Shown here: piece after piece, positions 16,399-52,566 of the stretch
How positions within the stretch are numbered: position 1 is the first letter of the stretch
Layout of the letters: the number at the start of each line of letters is the position of its first letter
From: an uncultured Gammaproteobacteria bacterium
Lineage (GTDB): Bacteria; Patescibacteriota; Patescibacteriia; Magasanikbacterales; UBA922
Direction: 5' to 3'
Assembly (NCBI GenBank): GCA_964418775.1
Contig: CAYQNA010000001.1
Coordinates: 64,446 to 128,445 of the forward strand
Length of the DNA stretch: 64,000 nt
Made by a program: the position numbers and the translations under genes
Notes under the pieces: generated by a model
Told to the model about the DNA's origin: nothing
Seen by the model: the letters and a program-made list of their open reading frames with translations, nothing else
Databases searched by the model: none

Positions 16399-16486
16399 TG
16401 GCGGAGAGGGAGGGATTCGAACCCTCGAGGCCTTGCGGCCAACCGCTTTTCGAGAGCGGCACGTTAGACCACTCTGACACCTCTCC
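16399..16486 (-). tRNA. tRNA-Ser (anticodon CGA)
   Basis: Minus-strand sequence GGAGAGGTGTCAGAGTGGTCTAACGTGCCGCTCTCGAAAAGCGGTTGGCCGCAAGGCCTCGAGGGTTCGAATCCCTCCCTCTCCGCCA. It has a cloverleaf, a long variable arm, the T-loop GGTTCGAATCC and an encoded CCA. Anticodon loop CTCGAAA. Confidence 0.9.
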
Positions 16487-25633: not shown

Positions 25634-25776
25634 AGAAGGTTAAAGACTGACCAGAATTATAACACAAAATTTGTGAGGTGAGTAGTTTGGCGATGGCTTG
25701 ACAAACAAGTGTGTTTAATTTACGATTATCCGCCGTGCGTTCACATTCACGGTATAGGTACAGGAGAAACGGAGCA

Positions 25777-26385
25777 ATGGATATCGCAAGCACAGAAAAG
25801 GGCCGAGCAGCGGCGAGCAAAATCCAGCAACAACGGATGGAGCACGCAAAGAGGGTGCGTCAGCTCCTGGCTGGGCATTTCAGACATAGCTCTTTCACGT
25901 ACCACGAGGCCCACCGACATGTGTTGGGTCAGGGTATGAAAATCTCGTCTGGAAGTTTTCAGGCAATGTGGACTGATTTCAAAAATCTGTCTGTCCTTAC
26001 CGGCCGAGGTTGCGGGCCGGGTCAATGGCGTTTCGATCCGGACGTGTACTTTGACCGGTACCGGCAGTCGATCGACTGTCCGGCACTGTCTGAGTCTGCG
26101 CCAGAATCGGTAGTGGATCCACCATCTTTACCACGTCGACCAGAGAGTCTCCACGAGCTACGCAAGCACTTGCCTGCGCTGTTGGATATTTTGCCCACCG
26201 GTCTGGTCATCAAGAGCTTACGTAAAGTCAGAGGCTCAGATAAAGCCGAGACAGGGCAAATCAAACGACTCCGGCGAATTCTAGAATTACGGATGTCTGG
26301 CTTGAGCGATTCGGAAAAGGAAGAACTTCTTACCGAGCTGCTCGTCAGGATAGCTGACCGTATCCCACCACATTCGGCTGATTGA
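25777..26385 (+). CDS. Hypothetical protein (Arg-rich, GC-rich gene)
   Basis: ATG at 25777 is preceded by AGGAGA about 10 nt upstream. Product is 202 aa, basic, with no recognised motif. Composition is markedly GC-richer than the AT-rich island downstream. Confidence 0.45.
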   Translation: MDIASTEKGRAAASKIQQQRMEHAKRVRQLLAGHFRHSSFTYHEAHRHVLGQGMKISSGSFQAMWTDFKNLSVLTGRGCGPGQWRFDPDVYFDRYRQSIDCPALSESAPESVVDPPSLPRRPESLHELRKHLPALLDILPTGLVIKSLRKVRGSDKAETGQIKRLRRILELRMSGLSDSEKEELLTELLVRIADRIPPHSAD

Positions 26386-26580
26386 AATCCAATCGGCCAA
26401 TCCCAAAAACACACCACTAATGGTGTGTTTTTAATTTGCATAATTTTAATTATATAAATTTTTTATAATTAAAAATATCCGGACCACTTTGAATTTCTGA
26501 AGCTTTTTGATTCCGTCGTGTCAACTGAGTCATGAGGCGGCAAGATTTAGGGAAAAAACTTCTCGCGCAGTAGACTGATT

Positions 26581-27681
26581 TTATGGATACGACTTAATGT
26601 TTTTTAGTCTTGGATACGGAATAACGTCTTTTATATCGTCTCTGCATAGCAGCCACGTAATATATCTTTCTATTCCCATGCCAAATCCTGCGGTGGAAGA
26701 ATACTGTGGCATGTCGCGTAAGTTTATATACCAATAGTATGGATCCGGTGGTATGTTTTGTCGCTTTAATGATTCGTAACATTCAACTGCTCTATCTTGC
26801 CTTTGACCACAACCAACTACTTCACCTCCAAATGAAAACTCTGTTAATGGGGGAAATATTAAATCAGCATTTAATACTTGGTCAGTATTTTTAGGATCTG
26901 GTTTTTGATAGAAAGGGACTCTGTCTCTGTCAAAATTAGTAATCCAAAAAGGTTCATTTGGAGAAAATATCTTTGATAACTCAATTTCTCCGATACTAGA
27001 AATATCTCTTCCATGATCTGTGTAATTTATATATTTTGTATAGCCATGCTCTTCAAGAATTTTTATTGCAGAATTAAAATCTATTTTTTTAAAAGATTTT
27101 AGGGATGCCAGTATTTTCATTGCCTGTTTAGAATGTTCAGGCGAACCACTTAAGCAATGTATTAAAAATGGTATATCTAGCATTGTTTGAGTGATATATT
27201 TTATATATTTTTCAACCAATTGCATGATGTCCGTCAAATTACCCCGCATTTCTGCCTCGCAGTGGAAAAATTGATTAAGGTGTCGTTTGTCAGGTTTCTC
27301 CCCTCGCATCGATGGTAAATAACAGTAGAGCAAATTAAAATTATTCATGAGAATTGGCTCAAAACCAAACTGTGATGAATCTACTAGAAATGTATCTAGG
27401 TTTCCAAACTGTATAGCGACAGCTTCACTGTCTGATCCTGGACCCATAGGACTGGATACAGAAGGAGTAAGCATAAACAAATCAACATTTATTCCATTCT
27501 GTTGGACAGAAAAAAAATCATCAGAGGCAAGTTTTAATACATGACGTAAATATAATATTGCATTCCAATATTTGTCTGTCGCTAGATCTTCGGTGTGACT
27601 TTTTGGATCGTATTTTGGCGGTTCCGTACCCCCTGCTTTTTCAAATAATTTGTTAATTTTTCTAAGCAAATCTTGGTTCAT
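26581..27681 (-). CDS. AsnRS-like class IIb aaRS catalytic-core paralog (lacks N-terminal OB anticodon-binding domain; archaeal AS-AR asparagine-synthetase-like)
   Basis: The C-terminus EFSFGGEVVGCGQRQ ... DPYYWYINLRDMPQYSSTAGFGMGIERYITWLLCRDDIKDVIPYPR aligns to the AsnRS motif 3 region (ELSSGSQRIH ... [30 protein letters not shown] ... VRDVIPFPR). The N-terminus aligns to the start of the catalytic domain, not to an OB fold. 366 aa, roughly 30% GC. Confidence 0.75.
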   Translation of the reverse strand: MNQDLLRKINKLFEKAGGTEPPKYDPKSHTEDLATDKYWNAILYLRHVLKLASDDFFSVQQNGINVDLFMLTPSVSSPMGPGSDSEAVAIQFGNLDTFLVDSSQFGFEPILMNNFNLLYCYLPSMRGEKPDKRHLNQFFHCEAEMRGNLTDIMQLVEKYIKYITQTMLDIPFLIHCLSGSPEHSKQAMKILASLKSFKKIDFNSAIKILEEHGYTKYINYTDHGRDISSIGEIELSKIFSPNEPFWITNFDRDRVPFYQKPDPKNTDQVLNADLIFPPLTEFSFGGEVVGCGQRQDRAVECYESLKRQNIPPDPYYWYINLRDMPQYSSTAGFGMGIERYITWLLCRDDIKDVIPYPRLKNIKSYP

Positions 27682-27688
27682 AAAATAA

Positions 27689-28675
27689 CTAGTGTGTAGT
27701 AATTATTAAAGAAACTTTGTCATTAATTGCCGATATTCTTGCCGTGCCCCCTATGGGAAATGTGGCGATCGGCATGGTGTGTCCTAATGTCATATTGGCA
27801 ACAATCGGTACAGACGTAAGTTCCTTTTTTGCTGCAATAATTTTCTTTAAAAAATCGGGTGTAATTTTTGTGATTTTTTTAAAGCGACCTATTACAATAC
27901 CCTTAATACCATTGAAATTGGGTAATTGAATAATTGATTGCAATAAGCGGTCAAAAATCATTGGGTTTATTTCCTCGTCCTCTTCTAAGAGTAATATTGA
28001 ATTTTCAAGTGATGGGAAATATTGTGTTCCTTGTAAGGAAGCAAAACAGCGCATATGTCCACCAATCAATGTTCCGGTTGCTTCGCCAGCTTTAATAATA
28101 TCAAAACCATTTGATTGGATGAATTCCCTTTTTTCTTGATCCAAGTACCAATCATCATCGCTCCAAAATTCGGAAGGGTTGATTTGATATTGGCCATCCT
28201 GCATACAACATTTCTCAAAGTATTCTTTGCTATAATCAAACCCTTTTTTTATGGCCCATGAAGAAAAATGTGGGCCATTACACCCCACCAATCCTGTTTT
28301 TGCATAAATTGCATTAGTTAGAACCGTTATATCTGAATAACCGCAAAGATATTTTGGATTTGATTTAATTAAATCATAATCAAGATAATCTAATAGTTGG
28401 TTTGAGTTATATCCGCCTATAGTCGTGAGTATTCCATCGACAGATGGATCTGAAAATGCATCATGCAAATCTTGCACCCTTGATTCAACTGATGAAGAAA
28501 AGAATTCATTAAATTCATTCACGTTTTTTCCAAAACTTACCCTAAACCCCGCATTTGCAAGTGCCTTTTCGGCTAATTTTACGGTGTCATTTGAAAGTAT
28601 TTTCATACTTCTAGAAGGAGCGATAACTCTAATATGCGAACCCTTTTTTAATTTTTTAGGTAGGATTGTTTCCAT
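27689..28675 (-). CDS. Peptidase S66 family LD-carboxypeptidase (LdcA/MccF-like)
   Basis: Nucleophile motif CGYSDITVL, His in LGHTMP, the acidic catalytic-Glu region LLLEEDEE, and N-terminal IRVIAPS. Start chosen at ATG 28675 (METILPKK...), 7 nt after the upstream stop. The track ORF extends to 28825. Confidence 0.75.
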   Translation of the reverse strand: METILPKKLKKGSHIRVIAPSRSMKILSNDTVKLAEKALANAGFRVSFGKNVNEFNEFFSSSVESRVQDLHDAFSDPSVDGILTTIGGYNSNQLLDYLDYDLIKSNPKYLCGYSDITVLTNAIYAKTGLVGCNGPHFSSWAIKKGFDYSKEYFEKCCMQDGQYQINPSEFWSDDDWYLDQEKREFIQSNGFDIIKAGEATGTLIGGHMRCFASLQGTQYFPSLENSILLLEEDEEINPMIFDRLLQSIIQLPNFNGIKGIVIGRFKKITKITPDFLKKIIAAKKELTSVPIVANMTLGHTMPIATFPIGGTARISAINDKVSLIITTH

Positions 28676-28682
28676 ATATTTA

Positions 28683-29789
28683 TTAAATATTTTCTTTAAT
28701 TGCTGACAAGAGGAATCCTTCTTCAGGAGACAGCGCATCCTGTATAAGAATTTTTTTTTCAATTTCTGGAATATACGAACTAATAAATTCTGACCCCTGA
28801 TGATTAATCCCTCGGCACTCTTCAAATTCTCGCATCATCTTTATTGTTGCTTTGGTTGATATTTTGAATTTATTTTTAAAATAAATCATTGCTCTTAGGT
28901 AAGATCTCAGAATTCGTTCTCTATTTTTATTTGCAGACGGCCGTAATCCTTCTGAGAGTAACATGCTAGATGTAATAATTGTATCCTCAAATTTAAATTT
29001 TAGTGGATCGTTAATCTTTTGAATGCCCAAAACAGGATTTGCAGAATTCACATGGTCAAGTGAAAAAAAATGTTTAAGAATAGTTGACGTGCCTAGAGCG
29101 AGCTCAACACCTAATTGTTTTTCGTTGTTTTCTAAAACAATCAAGTTGCCTATATCATGAAGAACCCCTTCTTTTTTAATGGAATAATTAAAATTTCTAC
29201 CCCACACACCGTTAACACCAACTTTATGTCTGTAGTATTTTTCAGGCATGGTGGTATCATCAAAACTTATACCTAAATTGGTATAAGTTTTTGCAAGCCG
29301 ATACAAATCTTTATCAGTATTATTTACTCGCAAAACTAGATTTTCTTTTGGTATATTTATAACATTTAACAAATAATCTAATGATTGGTCGCATAATTCA
29401 GATATTTTCTCGGGTATAACCAAAACACCCAAACTTTTAAAATAAGAGCCCCATGCTGGCACAATTGAGTCATTAAATATTTTTTGTAAATTTTGAGTTC
29501 TTACGCATTGCTGCGACATGACCAATCCGTTTTTAGGTATTTTGTTTTCCAAAAAATACTTTTTCATTGGGCTAATGTGTGAGCCAACAAATCTTACCGT
29601 TGGATCTATGCCTGAAGTAATGGTAACTGAGGGTATCTCCTTATATCCTTTTTCAGAAAAAAAGTCTATAAACGCCCGTATCATTTTTTCCGTATATTCA
29701 TGCATTTCTTCGGGGGCTGGCTTATATTCGCCAAATCCATAATCGAAAAGTGATTTATTAAAGGCAGGCTTTTTTGTATTTTTAATCAT
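28683..29789 (-). CDS. AlaRS-like class II aaRS catalytic (aminoacylation) domain paralog, truncated (no editing or C-Ala domains)
   Basis: IRAFIDFFSEKGYKEIPS ... DPTVRFVGSHISPMKKYFL ... SQQCVRTQN ... WGSYFKSLG parallels the AlaRS N-terminus (IRQAFLDFFHSKGH.VV.SS ... DPTLLFTNAGMNQFK ... SQRCVRAGG ... HHTFFEMLGNFSFG). About 368 aa from ATG 29789. AT-rich. Confidence 0.7.
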   Translation of the reverse strand: MIKNTKKPAFNKSLFDYGFGEYKPAPEEMHEYTEKMIRAFIDFFSEKGYKEIPSVTITSGIDPTVRFVGSHISPMKKYFLENKIPKNGLVMSQQCVRTQNLQKIFNDSIVPAWGSYFKSLGVLVIPEKISELCDQSLDYLLNVINIPKENLVLRVNNTDKDLYRLAKTYTNLGISFDDTTMPEKYYRHKVGVNGVWGRNFNYSIKKEGVLHDIGNLIVLENNEKQLGVELALGTSTILKHFFSLDHVNSANPVLGIQKINDPLKFKFEDTIITSSMLLSEGLRPSANKNRERILRSYLRAMIYFKNKFKISTKATIKMMREFEECRGINHQGSEFISSYIPEIEKKILIQDALSPEEGFLLSAIKENI

Positions 29790-29870
29790 ATTATAGTAGT
29801 ATGAAGTATAAAATACTACACTAACATTATGCCTATTCAGAATGAAAAATACAATATTAGTATTATTAAC

Positions 29871-30821
29871 ATGGAGACACATCCTAACCTAAAATCTATT
29901 TCGGAATTAGTTCAACTTAAAATAGGTGATATTCTTGATTTTAAAAAGATGTCCGGCGGAAGTAATGAAATTTTTTATATTAAAACCAATCATGGCGAGT
30001 TTATTGTAAAAATATACAATGAAGACAGCTCACAAAGAACTAATTTAAGTCGAGAAATACAAATGTCTAGCATATTGAAAGATTTTCCTGAAATAAGAAG
30101 TCTGGTTTTTTCTGATACAACAAGAAGTCAGATACCGTATGAGTTTGCAATATTTGAATATGTGGACGGCCAAACCTTACGATTTCTCGTTGAAAACAAT
30201 CTTTTAACAGATGAACAATTAGAAGTAATTGCTGATCAGATTTTTGATTTAATTAAAAGAATTATAGAAATTGCAACAAAAAAGTTTGGACAGCTGGATG
30301 AAAGTGGTTTGATAGGGACGTCTCAATCTTGGGTTGATTTTTTGGGTGGCATGCAAGATCCGACTACAAAAACATTTGAAAATAGTAACCTTTTCCCGGA
30401 CAAAGAATATTTAATACCGCAAGCAGTACTGGATAAACACAAAAGTGTATTTGAGCTAGATGATCCAAGATTGATCCCGATGGATTTAAATATAGACAAT
30501 ATAATTGTCACTCCCGATCAAAAAATAAAGTTTATAGACCCAGAAACTTTTTGGAGCGGTGATCCATTATGCGCATTTGCTCAATTTTATGCCCTAACAA
30601 AGGGCACCATATTAGGTGATAAATTTTTTGGGAATTTGGAGCTTTCACCAGATGATGAGTTCAAAGTTCGACTTTATGCACTCCTAGATAATCTGAATGT
30701 TCTTGCCTTTATAACGAGGGTTAATCCAGAAGGTGCTAAAGAAGCAAAGCCATATGGAAACCCAAACAAATTTTTTGATTTGATAAACGAGAATGTAAAA
30801 TTCTTTGAACAAAGTTTATAA
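29871..30821 (+). CDS. APH/choline-kinase-fold small-molecule kinase (aminoglycoside-phosphotransferase-like)
   Basis: Brenner-type catalytic loop PMDLNIDNIIV and metal-binding FIDPE. Protein-kinase-like fold length (about 316 aa from METHPNLK). Divergent from the AlaRS-like gene with an 80-nt AT-rich intergenic region. Confidence 0.6.
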   Translation: METHPNLKSISELVQLKIGDILDFKKMSGGSNEIFYIKTNHGEFIVKIYNEDSSQRTNLSREIQMSSILKDFPEIRSLVFSDTTRSQIPYEFAIFEYVDGQTLRFLVENNLLTDEQLEVIADQIFDLIKRIIEIATKKFGQLDESGLIGTSQSWVDFLGGMQDPTTKTFENSNLFPDKEYLIPQAVLDKHKSVFELDDPRLIPMDLNIDNIIVTPDQKIKFIDPETFWSGDPLCAFAQFYALTKGTILGDKFFGNLELSPDDEFKVRLYALLDNLNVLAFITRVNPEGAKEAKPYGNPNKFFDLINENVKFFEQSL

Positions 30822-30833
30822 AATGCAACGTCC

Positions 30834-32123
30834 ATGGAAAAAGTTTTAATTATTGGCAGCGCCACAAGTCGTGAATATGCTCTTGTTAGAGAGTTGTCAG
30901 TTTATTGTAAATGTAAAGTGAGTGCTTATTTATGGAGGGATAGTCATTTTATTAAAAATCATTGTACCAATTATGAAGTTGGCGATGTTCAGGATATTGA
31001 TAGAATTATTCAGTTTACTAAAAAGGTAAAGCCTGATTTTGTTATTGTTACACAGGGTGAAGCAATGCAAGTTGGAATCAGAAACCACTTAGATTCTATC
31101 AACATACCGTGTATATCGCCGACAAAAGAGCAAAGTAAATTAGAAAATAGTAAGATTTTTTGTCGACAATTTATTAAAGAGATAAACGAACACTTTGTAC
31201 CAAAACACAAAGCGTTCGACGTAAAAAATATTGCTGATTTAGATGGTTATATTAATGAATTAAAATCTGACAAGGTAGTATTAAAATTTGATGGACTCAT
31301 GAACTCTGAAGGGGTGAAGATTTATAACTTGAAAAAAGATTCAAAAAAAGATTTAAAAAATCAAGCAAATACATGGATTAAAAAAGTCAACGGCAAAATA
31401 GTTGTGGAAGAATTTGTTGAAGGAGATGAAGTTTCAATAATGAGTTTTGTCGATGGCACGAATATTGTACACATGCCCCCTGTTAAAAATTATAAGAAAA
31501 TCTGGGAAGGTGATGGTGGCGATAATACTTCTGGAATGGGTTCAATTACGATTGGCAAAACATTGGGTTTTTTAACAAATAAAGACGTCCTCAAATTAGA
31601 AGAAGTTAATAACCTAGTGTTTGAGAAAATAAAAAAGGATTTTTCAGAAAAATATATAGGTATATTGATGGGTGAATTCATAATTAATAATGGGGAAATT
31701 AAGGTTATTGAGTATAATACACGTTTTGGTAATCCTTCAACAATAAATATTTTAAATCTGTTAGATACTAGTTTTTTAGAAATTTGTAAATCAATGATAA
31801 GTGGTACGCTAAATAATACGCCTATTAAATGGAAAAATTTAGCATCAGTTTCTGTGTCGGTTGTACCAAAAGGTTATCCGTACTCAAAAGAAAATGTTGG
31901 AAAAAAAATAAATTTAACCAAACTAGAAAAAGAAGAACTGGGGCATATATTTTTTGCAAGCTTAAATGTGGATTCTAATAAAGATATCACACTTATGAAT
32001 TCAAGAAATTTAACAGTTTGTGTTGTTGGAGAAGAAATAAATAATTGCCGAAGCAGAATAATAAAAATTTTAGATAAAATTGGTGGGCCTATATATTTTA
32101 GAAAAGATATAGGAACTTTTTAA
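30834..32123 (+). CDS. PurD-like ATP-grasp ligase (phosphoribosylamine--glycine ligase homolog)
   Basis: MEKVLIIGSATSREYALVRELS matches MKVLVIGNGGREHALAWK. DGGDNTSGMGS matches DKDTGPNTGGMG. IKVIEYNTRFGNPST matches PKVIEFNCRFGDPET. The C-terminal GGPIYFRKDIG matches CFCRKDIG of PurD. Confidence 0.7.
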   Translation: MEKVLIIGSATSREYALVRELSVYCKCKVSAYLWRDSHFIKNHCTNYEVGDVQDIDRIIQFTKKVKPDFVIVTQGEAMQVGIRNHLDSINIPCISPTKEQSKLENSKIFCRQFIKEINEHFVPKHKAFDVKNIADLDGYINELKSDKVVLKFDGLMNSEGVKIYNLKKDSKKDLKNQANTWIKKVNGKIVVEEFVEGDEVSIMSFVDGTNIVHMPPVKNYKKIWEGDGGDNTSGMGSITIGKTLGFLTNKDVLKLEEVNNLVFEKIKKDFSEKYIGILMGEFIINNGEIKVIEYNTRFGNPSTINILNLLDTSFLEICKSMISGTLNNTPIKWKNLASVSVSVVPKGYPYSKENVGKKINLTKLEKEELGHIFFASLNVDSNKDITLMNSRNLTVCVVGEEINNCRSRIIKILDKIGGPIYFRKDIGTF

Positions 32124-32149
32124 GGCCTTTGATTATTTAGACATAATTT

Positions 32150-32722
32150 ATGTTAAAAGTTGGGTTTGACATGGATGGAGTTATTATTGACAACACAGTG
32201 TTTAAAAGTGATTTGTACCGTCAGAAAACTGGTATAAAGCTTGAATGTTGGAAGTTTAATTCAAATGTTATTGATGATTACATAACTAATACCCCTCTTC
32301 GTAAAGAAATAGACAAAATTAGCGCCATATCTGTACATCATAAAACAACTGAACAGAACATGCGCAACATTTTATTAGAAATAAAGTCCCACGCAGACAT
32401 TTTTTTGATTTCCTCAAGAGGAAAAAGTGAAGAGGGCGTGTTGGCAGCGCGACAAACCATTAAAAATCTAAAATTAGATACTATCTTTGGAGATAATATT
32501 TTTTTTACAAAAAACGATGGAGATAAAATTGAAAAAATTAAATTTCTTGAAATTGATTTTTTTATAGAGGACAGATTCGATGTTATTAGTATGCTACCTA
32601 AAAAAACAGCCATACTATATGATCAATTTTTTCAATGGAAAAAATATAAAAAATATATTATTATTAAATCACTCTTGGACATTATTCCGTTAATTAGATT
32701 TCAGGAGTACAGTGATAACTAA
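32150..32722 (+). CDS. HAD-superfamily phosphatase, 5'(3')-deoxyribonucleotidase (NT5C)-like
   Basis: Motif I FDMDGVIID (DxDGV) at the N-terminus and length about 190 aa are typical of NT5C-like HAD nucleotidases. Confidence 0.6.
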   Translation: MLKVGFDMDGVIIDNTVFKSDLYRQKTGIKLECWKFNSNVIDDYITNTPLRKEIDKISAISVHHKTTEQNMRNILLEIKSHADIFLISSRGKSEEGVLAARQTIKNLKLDTIFGDNIFFTKNDGDKIEKIKFLEIDFFIEDRFDVISMLPKKTAILYDQFFQWKKYKKYIIIKSLLDIIPLIRFQEYSDN

Positions 32723-32724
32723 GA

Positions 32725-34014
32725 TTGGGTGATGAATGTTACTATATGATCGGTACAGGAATTATCTTAAAACCAAATGGCGATGAAATTTTTATTAAGG
32801 ATGATGAGACTTTGGAATCTCTTATAAAAACAAAAATTACGAAAGAAATGGGAGCTTACTTGCGGAGAGCAGAGTTAGGAGGAAAAGTGAATGAAAGTAT
32901 GGTTGTGCAAAAAGCTATAGATTTGGGTTATTTATCTCACACCCTAAATACAAATGACGGTAGTGCAACATTTACCTCTAAGGGGAAAATAATAAAAGAA
33001 TTGATAACACAGTGGAGTAAATCAATCGCCAAAAATAAATTACAAGCTTTAGAAGTAGAAACTCCGGATATATATAAAGCTAATAAAGTTATATTATCAA
33101 TGCAAGATCAATTCGGCGAACCCCCTTTTTATATTAATGAAGAGGAAATATTAAGACCTGCATCTGATTTTGGGGTTTTTTCTTTGTATGGAGGGAAAAT
33201 ATTACAAGAATCAATTATTCCGCACAGAATTTTTGAGCTGGCAAATTGTTTTAGGCAGGAAGACGTGAATAGGGTTGATTTATTAGCAAGACCTAGGAAA
33301 TTTTCCATGCCTGATCTACACACATTTATTCAATTGAAAGATCTAGATAATGAACTAAAAATTCAGGAAGATGTTTATCTAGATGCAATGAGATCCATTG
33401 AACTTGAGTTTCTTGTTTCTGTTAGGACAACAACAGAAGAATACACTCAATTAAAAAAACATTTTTTTTATTTAGCTCAACAAACTAATAAAGAAGTTTA
33501 TATTAATATAGTACCAAGCAGGAAACGTTATTGGACAACTAAAATTAAATTCATCTACGTAGATAGTCTTGGCAATAATTTACAATTAACTACTATACAA
33601 ACTGACCACGATTCTGCCAAACTTTTTAATATCAAATTAAAAGATACTTATCCGAGTGTGCTTCATTCGTCGCTTGGCAGTATAGAGCGGCTGATGTATG
33701 CCCTTATTGACGAAGGATTAAAGGGAAAACATTTTATGTTACCACTATGGATAAGCCCCGTTCAAGCTATGATTTTTGGGGATAAAAAAAATTTAATGAT
33801 TGGGAGATTAGTGAGATATGAAAAATGTAGTGAAACTAGTATAAAATCAAATATGTTTGAAAGCTTTTTTAAAATTGGTATTCCTTATGTAATTGATGTT
33901 GATAATAACATTGCTTATAGCAGAGATGACCAGGAACAGGCTGACATGGTAATCAATAAAATTGAAATTATTAATAAAAATTTTTTGAATCTACCTAAAT
34001 CAAATAAATTTTAA
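32725..34014 (+). CDS. ThrRS-like class IIa aaRS paralog (catalytic + anticodon-binding domains only; no N1/N2 editing domains)
   Basis: Motif 2 RIFELANCFRQEDVNRVDLLARPRKFSMPDLHTF parallels the ThrRS sequence [33 protein letters not shown]. Motif 3 GSIERLMYALIDE followed by HFMLPLWISPVQAMIFG parallels GSMERFIGILTEE ... FPTWLAPVQVVIM, the catalytic/anticodon-domain junction. The motif 1 region GKIIKELITQWSKSIAKNKLQALEVETPDIY also matches. Confidence 0.7.
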   Translation: MGDECYYMIGTGIILKPNGDEIFIKDDETLESLIKTKITKEMGAYLRRAELGGKVNESMVVQKAIDLGYLSHTLNTNDGSATFTSKGKIIKELITQWSKSIAKNKLQALEVETPDIYKANKVILSMQDQFGEPPFYINEEEILRPASDFGVFSLYGGKILQESIIPHRIFELANCFRQEDVNRVDLLARPRKFSMPDLHTFIQLKDLDNELKIQEDVYLDAMRSIELEFLVSVRTTTEEYTQLKKHFFYLAQQTNKEVYINIVPSRKRYWTTKIKFIYVDSLGNNLQLTTIQTDHDSAKLFNIKLKDTYPSVLHSSLGSIERLMYALIDEGLKGKHFMLPLWISPVQAMIFGDKKNLMIGRLVRYEKCSETSIKSNMFESFFKIGIPYVIDVDNNIAYSRDDQEQADMVINKIEIINKNFLNLPKSNKF

Positions 34015-34015
34015 T

Positions 34016-34582
34016 ATGGCGAAAATCATACTGACTGGGCCACATTATTGTGGAAAAACCACTGTACTTAGAAAATTGAAGGATTACTTTTTAGATAACC
34101 CTGAAGTGGGTTTTATTGAAAGCGATGGAAGTCGCTGTCCAATTAGTTACAAAGATGTGGATTATTTGCGAGCAAATCCCAAAACAGAAATAAACATAAC
34201 ATATTGGATGATTGCAGATAACATAAAAAGAGAGATTGAGGCAAAAAATAAATATAAAAATTTAGTATTTGATCGCTGCGTCATAGATCAGCTTGCATAC
34301 CCCGCAGAAATTACCGGTAAAGATAATTTACCAAAATCCATAAATTTATTTATACGAGAATGGCTTATATTTGAACCATACGATAAGATATTTATATTTC
34401 CCGCAAACCCTGATTTTTTGAAAGCAGGTACAAATAATACTGGAGATGTAAATTTTCAGAAAAATATTGAACAAAGATATTTAGAATTAACCAAAGAATT
34501 TAATCTTTCGTCTGAAATACTCCCCTTAGATCAAGATAGACAAATTGATTTAATTTTAAATTATTTGAAGTCTAATTTATAA
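34016..34582 (+). CDS. P-loop NTPase, nucleoside/nucleotide-kinase-like (AAA_33/dNK-like)
   Basis: Walker A GPHYCGKTT at residues 8-16. 188 aa, a size typical of small-molecule kinases. Starts 1 nt after the ThrRS-like gene stop. Confidence 0.55.
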   Translation: MAKIILTGPHYCGKTTVLRKLKDYFLDNPEVGFIESDGSRCPISYKDVDYLRANPKTEINITYWMIADNIKREIEAKNKYKNLVFDRCVIDQLAYPAEITGKDNLPKSINLFIREWLIFEPYDKIFIFPANPDFLKAGTNNTGDVNFQKNIEQRYLELTKEFNLSSEILPLDQDRQIDLILNYLKSNL

Positions 34583-34931
34583 ATTGCCTGAAGCTCGTGT
34601 TTTTGTGTAAGTTAGAAAAATATAATCCGTTTTTTTGGCGTGTCGTCAATTATGGAAATTGGCGTGCAAAAGTTACAAGATTCCATAATCGGTGGCCAAT
34701 TGAAACTTTTTATTTTTACGGTTTGCAAAAAATCCCCGCATTACGGAGACTTTCGCCCTGCACGGCTGATTATATTTTTCAAAAGTAACTCACTGATCAC
34801 TGCACCAACAAGTGGTTAAGTAATCAGTGAGGGGGAGCGTCGTGCGAAACGATTCATACTCCCGACTGTGTCATCCGCTTGCGCGATTGACTCGGGTCGG
34901 AGCGTGAGCTCCCCAACACCTCCTTAGTTGC

Positions 34932-35708
34932 CTACTCCTCCGGAATGCAGCCCTCGATGGGCTCGTTGTACCGGCACTCGTTGCCCGACCCTGCAAAGTG
35001 CAGACAAACATTCTGCAGACAGGGATCATCGGTGACCCCGCAGTCCGTATCCGTCTGGCAAGTGTCGATGCACTTCACCTCGGGCTCGGACGTGCACAGA
35101 TTGTTGCAGAACTGACCGACGCCCATGCTGGGCTGGCAGGTCGAGTCTTCCTCACAGGAGTAGAGCAGCATACCAACACTGCTCCCGTTGCAGACCTTGT
35201 CAGCTTTGCAATCCGCGTGCGTCTTGCATGGCTTGCATCCCTCCACTGTTGCGTGGGCGCAGAAACCCCCATCGCAAGTTTCAGTCGTGCAGCCCTGGCC
35301 GTCGTCGCAGTCCTCGTCGGACTGGCACTGGACCTCGCTGGCCCAGATCTCTGGTGTGTCGGTCGGCTGCGACGCTTCTTCCTCGGCCTTCTGGCTCTGG
35401 AAGTACATGATGAGGTCTTCGAGCATCTCGTCGGAGAGGGTGAACGTGCCCTGTTCCACCGAGAACATGGTGGGTGCTCCGACCTGACCTTCCTCACCCG
35501 TGAGGTCGGTACCGTCAAAACCAACGGCCGGTTCCGGCCAATCGACGCCCGGCTCACCCATGGGACCGTCGACCCCGTGGGTACCGTCGCCGTTGTTGGT
35601 CTCGTCCACGCTGTTCGCGGTGGTACACACCGGGTCCGGGCTCACGCAGTCGCGCGAGCAGGAAGAGACGAGGGCAACGAAGACGGACAGCGTGTTGAAC
35701 TTATTCAT
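34932..35708 (-). CDS. Cysteine-rich secreted lipoprotein (repeated CxxDxDC-type modules), GC-rich and probably foreign
   Basis: Signal peptide with lipobox (LVSSC). About 28 Cys in repeated motifs (CQSDEDCDDGQGC, CKTHADCKADKVC, CQTDTDCGVTDDPC). Composition is strongly GC-rich. Long ORFs on the opposite strand look like GC-driven artefacts. Confidence 0.55.
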   Translation of the reverse strand: MNKFNTLSVFVALVSSCSRDCVSPDPVCTTANSVDETNNGDGTHGVDGPMGEPGVDWPEPAVGFDGTDLTGEEGQVGAPTMFSVEQGTFTLSDEMLEDLIMYFQSQKAEEEASQPTDTPEIWASEVQCQSDEDCDDGQGCTTETCDGGFCAHATVEGCKPCKTHADCKADKVCNGSSVGMLLYSCEEDSTCQPSMGVGQFCNNLCTSEPEVKCIDTCQTDTDCGVTDDPCLQNVCLHFAGSGNECRYNEPIEGCIPEE

Positions 35709-35967
35709 GACTGACTCCGATGCGGCCGTGTAGCGGTCCGCGTTTATGCCCCACAGGGCTAGATTGGAATGGTCCGGACTGGCTGACGAGTGTCATCCTG
35801 CCCAGAGCTTTGGGAGGGTCAAGCACTACCCTGGCAAAGCTGTAGGAAGGAAAAGCCGTAAAATTTTAACCGCGGAGTATACCTTTTTTTCAACCCCTTA
35901 GGACGTCAAAAGACCGGTTAAAACCGGTCTTTCTTGGCTAGATTAAGCCTTTTTGTTGGCTGCCTCC

Positions 35968-36234
35968 TTACTCCTCGCCCAGTCCCAGCTTTTCCTCTAT
36001 TAAGGTAAGGCTGCTGGCCATGGCATCGGCATCGGCCCGGGTGCGGTCGTCCAGTTTGTGGAGCTGTAGGCGGAGGTCGGTCAGGCCGCGGTCGAGGTTG
36101 GTGCCCAAGTGGCCAATTTGCTGGCGGCATTGCTGGGCCGTGACCTCTAGGTTTCCCAGGGTATCCAGGATGTCTCCTAGGAGGCGGGGGAGGTCACTAA
36201 GGTTAACGTCAGGTACATAGGTTGTGGTTGCCAT
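35968..36234 (-). CDS. Small hypothetical protein (coiled-coil-like)
   Basis: ATG at 36234 (MATTTYVPDVNLSDLPRLLGDILD...), 88 aa. Lies in the same GC-rich segment. No motif. Confidence 0.35.
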   Translation of the reverse strand: MATTTYVPDVNLSDLPRLLGDILDTLGNLEVTAQQCRQQIGHLGTNLDRGLTDLRLQLHKLDDRTRADADAMASSLTLIEEKLGLGEE

Positions 36235-36330
36235 AAAGAAAGTAGGCTGCTGTGGCGCTCCCACACGCAGCGTAGATAGTATCAAACAGCTGGGTTTGAC
36301 TGTCAAATTAGCCTAAAATACGTAGGGGAC

Positions 36331-49843: not shown

Positions 49844-50833
49844 ATGAAAGAACCAACGTACAGCCAGGCTGTGCATGCTAGTTGGCAATTGGCGTGGAAA
49901 CACAAGAGTTTGTGGGCATTTGGCTTGTTTGCCATGTTGCTCGGACAATTGGGAATTGTGGATTTGTTTTTTAAAGTGATTTTTGTCTCTCGCACGGCCG
50001 AGACACCGCATTTGGCAGATTATTTGTGGTCGGTTTTGAATCCACAAACATGGATTCAGTGGGTTGGTGGGCCAGTGTCGCTAACACCAGACACGTGGGT
50101 TTGGTTAGCGTGGTTGATTGTCACAATGGTGGCACTCGCGGCCATGGTGGTATTTGTAGCTGTGGTGTCGCAGGGTGCGCTGGTACATATTAGCGCACGC
50201 ATTGCCAAGCGTCCGGGCGGGGAAGTGGACGAAACCAAGGCGTGGCACCAGGGTGTGACGCACTTTTGGCGCTTGCTTGGACTCAATATTGTGCGCAAAT
50301 TAATTATGGGCGCAGTGTCACTGCTCTTGGTGGCAGCGGTTTTACCGGCTGTACAGGACCCAAGTGGTGTGAACAAGGTGCTTTTGGTTGGGCTCGTGAT
50401 TTTTGCACTTTTGGTTGGTGTGATCGCTTCGTTTTTGCTTGTGTACGCGGCGTGTTACGTGATTGTCGAAGAGTATCGTTTACCAGAAGCGCTCCGCGAA
50501 GCCTGGCGTTTATTTATCCGTCATCCATTTGTGTCACTCGAAGTTGGCGCAATTGTAATTTTGGCCAATATCTTGCTCGCATTTGTGGCGCTTGTGGGCG
50601 TGGTATACATTTTGTTCTTGCCAATTTTGGTCTCGTACTTTATGGCCGTATGGTTTAACACGGCTGTGCTCGTAAAATTCGGTCTTATTTTGGGCTACGC
50701 ACTGTTTGTGGTATTGCTCGTGGTTGCCTGCGCCTTGTTTACAGTGTTCACCACCAGCATGTGGACATACTTGTTTACTAAAATGCACAAGCATGGACTC
50801 ACAAGCCGTCTCTTCCATTGGCTGCATCGCTAA
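49844..50833 (+). CDS. Hypothetical polytopic membrane protein
   Basis: About 7 TM helices. No catalytic motif recognised. Confidence 0.45.
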   Translation: MKEPTYSQAVHASWQLAWKHKSLWAFGLFAMLLGQLGIVDLFFKVIFVSRTAETPHLADYLWSVLNPQTWIQWVGGPVSLTPDTWVWLAWLIVTMVALAAMVVFVAVVSQGALVHISARIAKRPGGEVDETKAWHQGVTHFWRLLGLNIVRKLIMGAVSLLLVAAVLPAVQDPSGVNKVLLVGLVIFALLVGVIASFLLVYAACYVIVEEYRLPEALREAWRLFIRHPFVSLEVGAIVILANILLAFVALVGVVYILFLPILVSYFMAVWFNTAVLVKFGLILGYALFVVLLVVACALFTVFTTSMWTYLFTKMHKHGLTSRLFHWLHR

Positions 50834-50835
50834 CT

Positions 50836-52566
50836 ATGTCCGGTTTCCAAAACCTTAATGATTTGCTCGGTGTTAAAGACGACCAGGGGACTGGGCCGTC
50901 GGCTCTGCCTACCGCGGTAAATGAAAAATTTGCCGAAAAAATGGTGAACATCAAGAAAAAGGAATTGGAAACTGAAGCCATTCGTTTGGCGACAGACATG
51001 GGTGCACCATACATTAATTTGGAGCGCTTTCCCGTGAGTCAGGAGGCGCTGCGCCAGGTGCCGCGCGAAACTGCCAGTGCACTCGGGGCTGTGTGCTTTT
51101 TTGCAACTCCAGACGAAGTGCGTGTGGGTGCACTCGATCCAACAGCACCACAGGTGCAGCAACTTTTATACGATATTCAGGAACGTAACCACGTACAAGG
51201 TGGCATGTACTTGATTTCGGAAACGAGTTTACAGCGCATTTTGGAGATGTACAACACGTTGCCTGTAATTAAACCCGTGACCAAAGACGTGCAAATTAGC
51301 AGTCAGGATTTGGAGAGAGTACAGGCTGATGTCAATGATTTTCGGTCGCTGCAGGCTGCGCTCGAAAAACGTTCGACGACCGACCTACTCACTTTGATTT
51401 TGGGCGCGGCGCTTAAGCTCGATAGTTCGGACGTACATATTGAAGCTGAAGAAACTAAGATTGTGGTTCGCTTGCGCTTGGATGGTATTTTGCACGATGT
51501 GGCCACGCTGCCAAAAGAAGTCTACAAACAATTGATTTCGCGCATTAAATTGTTGTCTTCGCTCAAAATTAATATTACAGATAAGCCGCAGGACGGCCGT
51601 TTTACCATTAAATTTACTGATTACGACATTGACCTGCGTATTTCGACCATCCCAACCGTTCATGGCGAAAGTGTGGTAATGCGGTTGCTCAAGCAAAAAC
51701 AAGAGGGGATTAGTCTGGACAAATTAGGTGTTCGAGGTCGCATGCTCGAGCAGCTAAAGCGCGAAATTGCGCGGCCAAATGGCATGATTATTTCGACTGG
51801 TCCGACTGGGAGTGGTAAGACTACAACTTTGTACGCGATTTTGAAAATACTAAACCAACCAGGCGTGAAAATTTTAACTCTTGAAGACCCAGTTGAATAT
51901 CGTATCGAGGGTGTGAACCAGAGTCAGATTGACCGCTCCAAAGATTACACGTTTGCCAAGGGTTTGCGTTCAATGCTGCGTCAAGATCCGGACATTGTGA
52001 TGGTTGGTGAAATTCGCGACCTTGAAACCGCGGATATTGCCGTTCAAGCGGCGCTTACTGGTCACTTGCTCCTATCTACAATCCACACCAATAGTGCTGC
52101 GGGCGCTGTGCCACGCTTTTTGTCCATGGGTGTAAAACCATTTTTGCTTGCACCGGCCCTGAATTGCGTGATTGGTCAGCGTTTGGTTCGTCGTGTGTGT
52201 CAACAATGCGCCGTTAAAACAGATTTAACTGCGTTACCAACAGACATGCAAACACGTTTGACAGAAATTTTACAAAATTTACCAGAAATTGATAAAAAAG
52301 AAATTGCGGAAAAACCAAAAATGTTCTATACTGCTAAGGGTTGTGTGGCCTGTAATAATTTAGGTTACAAAGGCCGTGTTACTATTTGCGAGTTGTTTAG
52401 CTTAACACCACAAATTGAACAAGCTGTGAACAGTGGGAAAGTGTCAGAATATGACATTGAGCAAATGGCCCGCGCCAACGGCATGGTCACAATGGTGGAA
52501 GATGGTGTTTTGAAAGCTTTAGACGGTATTACCACACCGGAAGAAGTCTTCCGAGTAATCGAATAA
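50836..52566 (+). CDS. pilB: Type IV pilus assembly ATPase PilB (GspE family)
   Basis: Walker A GPTGSGKTTTLYA, Asp and His boxes, tetracysteine CQQC ... CVAC, and an N-terminal T2SSE_N-like domain. Confidence 0.85.
   Translation: MSGFQNLNDLLGVKDDQGTGPSALPTAVNEKFAEKMVNIKKKELETEAIRLATDMGAPYINLERFPVSQEALRQVPRETASALGAVCFFATPDEVRVGALDPTAPQVQQLLYDIQERNHVQGGMYLISETSLQRILEMYNTLPVIKPVTKDVQISSQDLERVQADVNDFRSLQAALEKRSTTDLLTLILGAALKLDSSDVHIEAEETKIVVRLRLDGILHDVATLPKEVYKQLISRIKLLSSLKINITDKPQDGRFTIKFTDYDIDLRISTIPTVHGESVVMRLLKQKQEGISLDKLGVRGRMLEQLKREIARPNGMIISTGPTGSGKTTTLYAILKILNQPGVKILTLEDPVEYRIEGVNQSQIDRSKDYTFAKGLRSMLRQDPDIVMVGEIRDLETADIAVQAALTGHLLLSTIHTNSAAGAVPRFLSMGVKPFLLAPALNCVIGQRLVRRVCQQCAVKTDLTALPTDMQTRLTEILQNLPEIDKKEIAEKPKMFYTAKGCVACNNLGYKGRVTICELFSLTPQIEQAVNSGKVSEYDIEQMARANGMVTMVEDGVLKALDGITTPEEVFRVIE

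Follow-up and report, generated by a model that had tools for sequence, protein, structure and literature searches.

The stretch of DNA analysed here (the window: 64,000 nucleotides of contig CAYQNA010000001.1, assembly GCA_964418775.1, from an uncultured bacterium placed by GTDB in the Magasanikbacterales) contains a low-GC island of ~8.3 kb (~26400-34800), set among the chromosomal core genes recA, ftsK, rpoB, rpoC and pnp. The GC content of the island is 0.32, compared with 0.47 and 0.49 in its flanks. It holds eight genes, three on the minus strand followed by a run of five on the plus strand, and lies between an ftsK/hypothetical gene on one side and a Cys-rich open reading frame (ORF)/rpoB on the other. 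A preliminary description of positions 30834-34582 had recognised four genes, encoding a PurD-like ATP-grasp ligase, an NT5C-like HAD protein, a ThrRS-like protein and a nucleoside-kinase-like P-loop protein, as a same-strand unit with gaps of 1-26 nt. All four are found at these positions on the plus strand, separated by 26, 2 (or 23, depending on the start codon of the ThrRS-like gene) and 1 nt. However, the plus-strand run opens with an APH-fold kinase gene (29829-30821), separated from the PurD-like gene by only 12 nt, and the unit is the eight-gene island as a whole. Its defining members, namely a homologue of the agrocin 84 protein AgnA, an MccF-like peptidase, an AlaRS-core paralogue and the APH kinase, lie outside the segment described previously.

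The island is compositionally foreign and horizontally acquired. Homology to a related locus in a Saccharibacteria metagenome-assembled genome (MAG; locus L012) is confined to 26576-32711, the L012 flanks being unrelated to those of the window, and the island occupies different genomic sites in related genomes. The right-hand junction was also found in an independent Logan assembly. Related loci in Saccharibacteria and in a Dysgonomonas are likewise AT-richer than their surroundings, whereas those of Clostridia have the composition of their surroundings, which suggests a Firmicutes origin. No att-like flanking direct repeats were detected beyond AT-rich chance matches, PADLOC returned no significant defence-system match, and neither plasmid/phage tblastn searches nor viral-contig scans with the APH-like and ThrRS-core families gave any match. 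A promoter and terminator scan gave no excess over the shuffled expectation, so that co-transcription is suggested by gene spacing alone.

The PurD-clade ligase and its glycine pocket

The PurD-like ligase (30834-32123, plus strand, 429 aa) matches all three Pfam domains of glycinamide ribonucleotide (GAR) synthetase (GARS_N, GARS_A and GARS_C, E 1e-10 to 5e-38) above their cut-offs and can be aligned end to end with human GAR synthetase (GARS; 2qk4). With the TIGR00877 purD model it scores 287.5 bits, marginally below the cut-off of 288, and the C-terminal YFRKDIG motif is present. The preliminary description had taken these signatures as conservation of GAR synthetase; this holds for the domains and the C-terminal motif, but not for the active site. 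A homology search separates a rare, discrete clade (P0001-P0015, 273-955 bits) from canonical PurDs, which score at most 168 bits at ~30% identity, with three true PurDs (P0016-18) falling between the two at 241-248 bits. Human GARS, whose numbering is used here for PurD residues, served as the reference for an alignment of 21 clade members, these three intermediates and 100 canonical PurDs. In GARS, the acidic residues D217, D295 and E297 bind the glycine ammonium group (PMC2978367, PMC8880213). None of them varies among the 100 canonical sequences. Across the clade, D217 is replaced by Asn in 19 of 21 members, D295 by Asn in all 21, and E297 by Ser or Cys, again in all 21; the window protein has N, N and S.

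A metagenome scan with the clade alignment yielded a further 80 loci. All encode canonical PurDs with an RFGDPE motif (80/80), meaning D295 and E297 are kept, and serve as a control set only; the motifs used in the scan are common to the clade and to canonical PurDs. Changes in the clade extend beyond the ammonium site. G276, a Gly in 99 of the 100 canonical PurDs, is Glu in all 21 clade members, a position that corresponds to the Mg-binding Glu267 of PurT (PMC2978367); G231 is replaced by Ser, and the conserved B-loop GLAAGK is degenerate. By contrast, the clade retains R13, E14, K148, E190/191, E197, K219, R220, N229, E288, N290, R292 and R385. The likeness to GAR synthetase thus comprises the three-domain ATP-grasp architecture, the ATP/Mg/acyl-phosphate residues and R13, E14 and R385, whereas the glycine-ammonium triad, G276, the B-loop and the genomic context all differ. 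Judged from its sequence, the protein is a repurposed, neofunctionalised ligase and not a GAR synthetase. Ligation of glycine is unlikely because the three acidic residues that bind the ammonium group are replaced across the clade, and it is uncertain whether any α-amino acid is ligated. This clean three-residue pocket change makes the repurposing of PurD a directly testable case of neofunctionalisation.

We also considered that the gene might be a displaced housekeeping purD, supplying the organism's GAR synthetase beside unrelated nucleotide-salvage enzymes. The three GARS domain matches, the TIGR00877 score only 0.5 bits under the cut-off, and the retention of R13, E14, R292 and R385 are what such a gene would show. 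However, the 21 clade members have, with hardly an exception, lost D217, D295 and E297, and the clade (at least 273 bits) is set apart from canonical PurDs (at most 168 bits), with the neighbouring P0016-18 group between them keeping the canonical residues, two of the three near a purF. The gene furthermore lies in a foreign, low-GC island and is missing from an otherwise collinear relative of such a cluster (locus L100, see below). The genomic context was probed with purN, purF, purH, purM, purB and purE sequences taken from the neighbours of the 80 canonical purD loci, where they were found 34, 33, 17, 14, 13 and 9 times, respectively. By tblastn, none of them matched anywhere in the 266 kb made up of the 64-kb window and 13 clade loci, which bears out, for the window, the earlier statement that no other purine-pathway genes are nearby. 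A housekeeping role is largely refuted by these data and we regard it as very improbable. The argument from reduced genomes that had been put forward previously is dispensable, as the PurD clade extends to Clostridia and Bacteroidota and is invariably found in such a cluster. We found no description in the literature of PurD-like ligases in natural-product clusters, or of this cluster family.

Some gut-metagenome variants of the PurD-like protein (P0009, P0011, P0013 and P0015) carry an N-terminal fusion to a conserved ~220-aa domain, which in Clostridia MAGs is a separate ORF. The domain was also noted at L009:3182-5104 and L014:7429-8091, and its invariant motifs include VHPFYP, RHANF, LFESPD, FTEHS and GC..C. 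Searches of Pfam, NCBIfam and the PDB gave no match; a resemblance to isochorismatase-type amidases was a mere impression that we could not support.

Synthetase cores, peptidase and nucleotide-type enzymes

The first minus-strand gene (26581-27681) encodes a class IIb aminoacyl-tRNA synthetase (aaRS) catalytic core of the AgnA family, AsnRS/AsnA-like and devoid of the anticodon-binding OB domain (tRNA-synt_2, E 2e-27). Although asnS and AsnA models match, they do so far below their cut-offs (AsnA E 1e-20 to 1e-41). Tblastn (E 2e-37) and blastp (E 4.7e-45) align it with agnA of the agrocin 84 plasmid pAgK84 at 31.8% identity across 91% of its length, and the motifs SSPMGxGSDS, FRGE, RHLxQF and GFGMGIER are common to both. 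A class IIb core without an anticodon-binding domain is also found in the archaeal, AsnRS-derived asparagine synthetase A (AS-AR). In contrast to that stand-alone enzyme, the window core is clustered and groups with AgnA via SSPMGxGSDS. An Asn specificity, read from the AsnRS-type Glu in 'SxQFxxE', was considered and rejected, because AgnA, for which a Leu-like hydroxy-acid amide is the proposed substrate, has the same Glu. The core is 53% identical to a gene on Bradyrhizobium plasmids, which is surprisingly close for the gene of a Saccharibacteria-type island. This relative (locus L104, Bradyrhizobium barranii pBb323S2a, 408-413 kb) is part of a four-gene mini-cluster of S66, AgnA-like, HAD-IA hydrolase and S-adenosylmethionine (SAM) methyltransferase genes, located beside nodU among insertion sequence elements; the same mini-cluster is present on three other Bradyrhizobium symbiosis plasmids.

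Adjacent to the AgnA-like gene is an S66 serine peptidase gene (27689-28675, minus strand; Peptidase_S66 and S66C), the product of which probably serves in immunity or processing. Of the proteins with solved structures, the Bacillus anthracis 'MccF-like' BA_5613 (E 8e-112) and Lmo1638 are its best relatives, and matches to MccF (1e-44 and 1e-33) are considerably stronger than that to LdcA (only 1e-17). The AgnC5 'MccF-like' protein of the agrocin 84 cluster is 27% identical (E 1.5e-35). The ORFs listed for this gene (27689-28825) and for the following AlaRS-like gene (28683-29882) are both over-extended at the 5' end. Alignment to solved MccF-like structures and orthologues points to Met51 of the listed ORF (28675) as the likely start of the S66 gene, and the apparent overlap of 143 nt with the AlaRS-like gene therefore vanishes. 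The latter is best given as 28683-29792 (minus strand), as it probably starts near 29792, the longest ORF running to 29882. It encodes an AlaRS aminoacylation-domain paralogue: tRNA-synt_2c (E 3e-13) covers the N-terminal 130 residues only, and the protein aligns to residues 10-144 and, weakly, 277-312 of Aquifex aeolicus AlaRS, keeping the start of the tRNA-recognition helix. A loss of ATP-site residues (D235E, no motif-3 Arg) was seen by eye only, in a region that HMMER leaves unaligned, and is not established.

The APH-fold small-molecule kinase that opens the plus-strand run (PF01636, E 4.7e-11) belongs to a rare family, with nine proteins at E ≤ 1e-10 among 5.8 billion, in which the catalytic K61, E76, D219, N224 and D237 are invariant. 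The HAD protein (32150-32722, plus strand, 190 aa) has no Pfam match when taken alone, and a word-indexed search returned only itself and one fragment. Alignment of 11 orthologues reveals all four HAD motifs (DxDGV, S88, K126 and DDR140-142), with D7, D9, S88, K126, D140 and D141 invariant or nearly so; 7 of the 11 match HAD_2 and four match NT5C (PF06941, best E 4.9e-5). An exhaustive search of 1.84 billion proteins found only 17 representatives of this family at E ≤ 1e-10. The next-nearest relatives are of the NT5C family, 5 of 9 matching NT5C, the best with 44.8 bits against a cut-off of 24.8. A single-sequence AlphaFold2 model of the protein had a pLDDT of 37 and was not used.

The ThrRS-like gene (32725-34014, plus strand; tRNA-synt_2b) encodes 429 aa when read from a TTG codon; the ATG at 32746, giving 422 aa, is the start called in an independent assembly. 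It scores 147-190 bits with thrS models, for which the cut-offs are 384-484 (best 189.6 versus 484). The protein is a catalytic-core paralogue with neither the N-terminal TGS nor the editing domain, and with a vestigial anticodon-binding stub of ~80 residues at the C-terminus. Even this stub is lacking in the other family members, 6 of the 7 being ~300-aa catalytic cores without an anticodon domain. The motif-2 residues R177 and E179 and the motif-3 residue R322 are invariant, whereas the zinc site has Asp148 in place of Cys while keeping His199 and His314 (Asp-His-His instead of Cys-His-His). The final gene (34016-34582, plus strand, 188 aa) encodes a dNK/TMPK-like P-loop kinase. AAA_28 matches above its cut-off (E 1.6e-10), Thymidylate_kin and the dTMP kinase model TIGR00041 (1.7e-6) below theirs, and both Walker A (TGPHxxGK(S/T)T) and a DRC motif are invariant in the family; no solved relative was found by sequence. 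The NT5C-like and nucleoside/nucleotide-kinase-like assignments of the preliminary description thus hold, in both cases at the level of distant homology between sequences.

Sibling clusters and optional cassettes

Twelve further cluster contexts were recovered, hosted by Saccharibacteria, Clostridia and a mobile element of a Dysgonomonas (Bacteroidota). The latter (L003, Dysgonomonas sp. 521, QVMO01000063) is an integrative mobilisable element with flanking tyrosine integrases and a relaxase/NikA pair. Every cluster contains at least one aaRS-derived protein, in most cases a core without the normal tRNA-binding domains. AsnRS-like cores are found in the window, L002, L005/L012, L009, L014, L015, L017, L100 and L101; AlaRS-like cores in the window, L005/L012, L101, L003 and L013; and ThrRS-like cores in the window, L003, L013 and L014-17, while L008 has ProRS-like and ValRS-like proteins. 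The APH kinase is present in all sibling clusters.

Comparison of the loci reveals a modular organisation. L100, a Logan contig (SRR15058747), is collinear with L002:6851-14242 at ~75% identity and lacks exactly the PurD-like and HAD genes, the methyltransferase and GlyRS genes being only 67 bp apart where L002 carries this pair. L005 and L012 in turn lack exactly the ThrRS core and the P-loop kinase. On the basis of these presence/absence contrasts, the four genes described previously constitute two optional two-gene cassettes, PurD-like ligase with HAD protein and ThrRS core with kinase. In the recovered clusters the HAD gene always directly follows the PurD-like gene, with an order of ligase, HAD and APH in the Clostridia and Dysgonomonas types and a fusion of APH to HAD in L003 and L013 (the Dysgonomonas and an Acutalibacteraceae MAG). 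The P-loop kinase is located directly 3' of the ThrRS core in the window and in L014-L017; in L101 and L008 it is replaced by an ADK-like or thymidylate-kinase-like gene. The L002/L100 pair represents a natural knock-out experiment for what the ligase and phosphatase cassette contributes. Just upstream of the L002 cluster (L002:4520-6615), a 42-aa ORF, a radical-SAM/SPASM enzyme and a transglutaminase-core protein resemble an unrelated locus for a ribosomally synthesised and post-translationally modified peptide (RiPP).

The clusters also differ in their putative detoxifying enzyme. An S66 peptidase is present in the window, L002, L005/L012, L008, L100 and L101; L003 has a HIT/HinT-like protein, L013 a RimL/MccE-like GNAT, and L014-16 have S51 PepE-like peptidases. 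S66, HIT, GNAT and S51 are the four published classes of enzymes that detoxify microcin-C-type aminoacyl-nucleotides (PMC8323819, PMC7157772, PMC9239234). An isoaspartyl dipeptidase scores above its cut-off in L014, L015 and L017, L014 combining it with two S51 peptidases, and L009 carries an Asparaginase_2. Several clusters adjoin a full-length synthetase: GlyRS in L002, L100 and L003 (alpha and beta subunits) and AspRS in L014, L015 and L017, all above the NCBIfam cut-offs. In L013 the GlyRS ORF is truncated (288 aa), yet also scores above the cut-off. A SAM-dependent methyltransferase of the AgnB1 type is confined to the sibling clusters L002, L008 and L100. Kinases of the APH, dNK/TMPK-like, ADK-like or TMK-like types, the NT5C-like HAD protein and HD hydrolases form a recurring set of nucleotide-type enzymes. 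Together with a nucleoside phosphorylase in a Xenorhabdus cluster (see below), these indicate repeated phosphate handling on a nucleoside-like scaffold.

Part of this inventory could be read as a system for recycling or remodelling unusual peptides, such as peptidoglycan stem peptides or cross-bridges, or isoaspartyl or cyanophycin-type dipeptides. The S66 protein would then act as an LD-carboxypeptidase, the APH and HAD proteins as a sugar kinase and phosphatase akin to AmgK and MupP, and the ligases would re-attach amino acids. Indeed, LdcA is an S66 enzyme, the anomeric sugar kinases of cell-wall recycling have an APH fold and MupP is a HAD enzyme, while the isoaspartyl dipeptidases, the S51 (PepE/cyanophycinase-like) proteins and the Asparaginase_2 of L009 among the Clostridial variants would suit dipeptide substrates. 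However, the S66 protein is far nearer to the MccF group than to LdcA (8e-112 and 1e-44 versus 1e-17), the HAD protein is NT5C-like, and genes of the Mur, Mpl or MurU type are missing. Recycling would also leave unexplained the homology to AgnA, the occurrence of HIT and GNAT variants, the nucleotide kinases and the linked GlyRS and AspRS, and both the location on a mobile element and the patchy distribution speak against a housekeeping function of this kind. We therefore consider peptide recycling improbable, if somewhat less so than a housekeeping purD.

Relation to agrocin 84 and a proposed product

The closest characterised system is the agrocin 84 (agn) cluster on pAgK84 of Rhizobium rhizogenes K84. 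In addition to the AgnA homologue and the AgnC5-type S66 peptidase of the window, sibling clusters contain an AgnB1-type SAM methyltransferase and a linked full-length aaRS as an analogue of AgnB2, and both systems are horizontally mobile. The gene order of pAgK84 (agnA, methyltransferase, resistant LeuRS (AgnB2) and, further on, the MccF-like gene) is paralleled by that of L100 and L002 (AgnA-like, APH, methyltransferase, the PurD-like/HAD pair where present, GlyRS, S66). The systems nevertheless differ in a number of respects. The linked aaRS is a LeuRS in agn but a GlyRS or AspRS in the siblings, agn has no counterpart of the APH kinase, PurD-clade ligase, HAD protein, ThrRS and AlaRS cores or P-loop kinase, and the hosts are Saccharibacteria, Clostridia and Bacteroidota as opposed to Rhizobiales. 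A 2021 review of Trojan-horse aaRS inhibitors reported agn-like clusters only in Ensifer and Actinobacteria (PMC8323819). AgnA-like genes also occur in other plasmid-borne settings: a Xenorhabdus bovienii megaplasmid (L108) with a methyltransferase, S66 LD-carboxypeptidase, nucleoside phosphorylase, leuS, ProRS-like protein and MFS transporter; Bacillus pseudomycoides pBTZ_2 (L106) with a methyltransferase and a non-PurD ATP-grasp protein, ahcY being nearby; and Pantoea agglomerans plasmids (L107), where a GNAT-AgnA fusion lies next to an MFS transporter.

Two other systems offer partial parallels. The enzyme classes represented by MccF, MccE/RimL, MccH/HinT and MccG of microcin C systems all accompany this cluster family. 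However, no ThiF domain, the hallmark of MccB, was detected in the eight island proteins, and no MccB or MccA candidate was seen in the sibling loci; assembly here, if any, would be by aaRS-derived cores and an ATP-grasp ligase. In ascamycin and SB-203208 biosynthesis, the truncated AlaRS-like AcmF and IleRS-like SbzA build aminoacyl-sulfamate or sulfonamide aaRS inhibitors from aminoacyl-tRNA, with AcmD as a dedicated AlaRS (PMC12945691). Truncated aaRS paralogues within the cluster, sometimes beside a full-length aaRS (PMC12945691), are thus common to these systems and those described here, although sulfamate-forming genes are lacking in the present clusters and the likeness to AcmF is one of description.

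On this evidence, we propose that the two cassettes belong to an agrocin-84-like, AgnA-type cluster that likely makes, and protects its host against, an aaRS inhibitor mimicking an aminoacyl-adenylate, a reading to which we assign a probability of roughly 0.6. In terms of classification, the island is most likely an AgnA-type aaRS-inhibitor cluster with a new tailoring repertoire and new hosts. The product would be a non-hydrolysable aminoacyl-nucleotide or a small peptidyl-nucleotide. Amino-acid-derived units may be activated, or transferred onto the nucleotide, by the AgnA homologue and perhaps also by the ThrRS and AlaRS cores, with transfer proceeding either directly, yielding an acyl-phosphoramidate, or from aminoacyl-tRNA in the manner of AcmF; either route is possible for the ThrRS and AlaRS cores. 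A role for AgnA together with AgnC1 in forming the phosphoramidate bond of agrocin has been proposed (PMC8323819). Phosphorylation of the scaffold, a nucleoside or nucleotide, would fall to the APH and P-loop kinases. In an optional step, the PurD-clade ligase could activate a carboxylate, no longer glycine, as an acyl-phosphate and join it by an amide bond to a phosphorylated intermediate of the ribose type. As R13, E14 and R385 and part of the pocket side for ribosylamine phosphate are kept, the amine may be of the ribose-5-phosphate type or located on a 5'-phosphorylated intermediate, from which the NT5C-like enzyme would then remove the 5'-phosphate. The ligase, HAD and APH gene order and the HAD-APH fusion in two loci fit such a sequential action. 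The MccF-like peptidase, finally, would cleave the aminoacyl-amide bond of toxin accumulating in the producer. The suggestion made in the preliminary description of specialised tailoring on a nucleoside or sugar-phosphate-type scaffold, as opposed to core purine metabolism, is supported and indeed strengthened.

A previously unrecognised assembly logic, independent of both RiPP and nonribosomal peptide synthetase (NRPS) routes, can also be envisaged. The AsnRS-, AlaRS-, ThrRS- and ProRS-derived cores would each add one amino-acid-derived unit, while the PurD descendant and its NT5C-like partner would make a GAR-like N-acyl-ribosylamine, a 'pseudonucleoside' used in place of the usual nucleoside or added to it as a decoration. 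We see this as an unlikely variant, although one that, if true, would imply new natural GlyRS and AspRS inhibitors carried by episymbiotic Saccharibacteria and gut Clostridia.

The main competing explanation for the clusters as a whole is a resistance or detoxification island, in which imported aminoacyl-nucleoside antibiotics are inactivated through phosphorylation by the kinases, modification by the ligase or peptidase and the action of the nucleotidase, the truncated aaRS cores act as inhibitor-sequestering decoys and nothing is synthesised. In line with this, no exporter was seen in the window island, in the other PurD-like/APH clusters or in the annotated flanking ORFs, although the AgnA-type clusters of Xenorhabdus and Pantoea are flanked by MFS transporters and an ABC transporter is encoded on pAgK84. 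Antibiotic inactivation is a classical activity of APH-family kinases, a single locus can hold several possible detoxifying hydrolases (for example the two S51 peptidases and isoaspartyl dipeptidase of L014), and the adenylate-binding residues kept in the cores suit binding as well as catalysis. On the other hand, AgnA and the AgnB1-type methyltransferase are biosynthetic in the sole characterised relative (PMC8323819), and an ATP-grasp ligase combined with nucleotide kinases and as many as three different adenylating cores amounts to an anabolic gene set. It would be costly to maintain decoys in stoichiometric amounts for three amino acids, and a single immunity type that alternates between clusters is typical of producer immunity. 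A pure resistance island is disfavoured because of the role of AgnA and AgnB1 in the characterised relative and the anabolic gene set, and we rate it as unlikely, albeit less remote than peptide recycling.

A number of points weigh against synthesis of an agrocin-like inhibitor. The window island has no regulator, AgnB1-type methyltransferase, full-length resistant aaRS or exporter, and BLAST at E 1e-3 gave no match between agnC1-C4, C6, C7, D or G and any cluster protein. The role of AgnA in agrocin 84 is itself a proposal and not a demonstrated activity, and the S66, S51, HIT and GNAT families also have housekeeping members. The PurD-like and HAD genes are dispensable for the function of the remaining cluster genes, as L100 shows. 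The data comprise 21 clade proteins in ~13 distinct contexts, a small set drawn mostly from metagenome assemblies, and the substrates of all island enzymes are predicted from sequence.

Aminoacyl-adenylate mimics are rare in nature, and those known, among them agrocin 84, microcin C, albomycin and ascamycin, are valuable leads for aaRS inhibition. To our knowledge, the biosynthesis of agrocin 84 is still not understood, and we know of no natural GlyRS inhibitor described to date. Through the island, AgnA homologues become linked to a compact and modular set of genes that is also present in Saccharibacteria, in gut Clostridia and on a mobile element of Bacteroidota, and the GlyRS and AspRS genes beside the clusters give an indication of specific targets.

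The borders of the island show further compositional features. A high-GC block (0.58-0.63) with long antisense ORFs lies directly to its right (34800-36300). In it, the 258-aa product of 34932-35708 (minus strand) is rich in Cys, has an N-terminus resembling that of a lipoprotein (…LVSSC…) and gives no NCBIfam match. As a second GC-rich hypothetical ORF (25711-26385) is located on the left, the island is bracketed by two compositionally odd segments. A perfect hairpin (26402-26432, AAAAACACACCA-CTAA-TGGTGTGTTTTT) between a 224-aa ORF and the 3' end of the AgnA-like gene resembles a bidirectional terminator; it was not reported by the simple terminator scan. Elsewhere, the window contains ordinary context genes, including a PilB/GspE-like type IV pilus/type II secretion ATPase (50818-52566, 582 aa) and a single tRNA-Ser(CGA) at 16399-16486.

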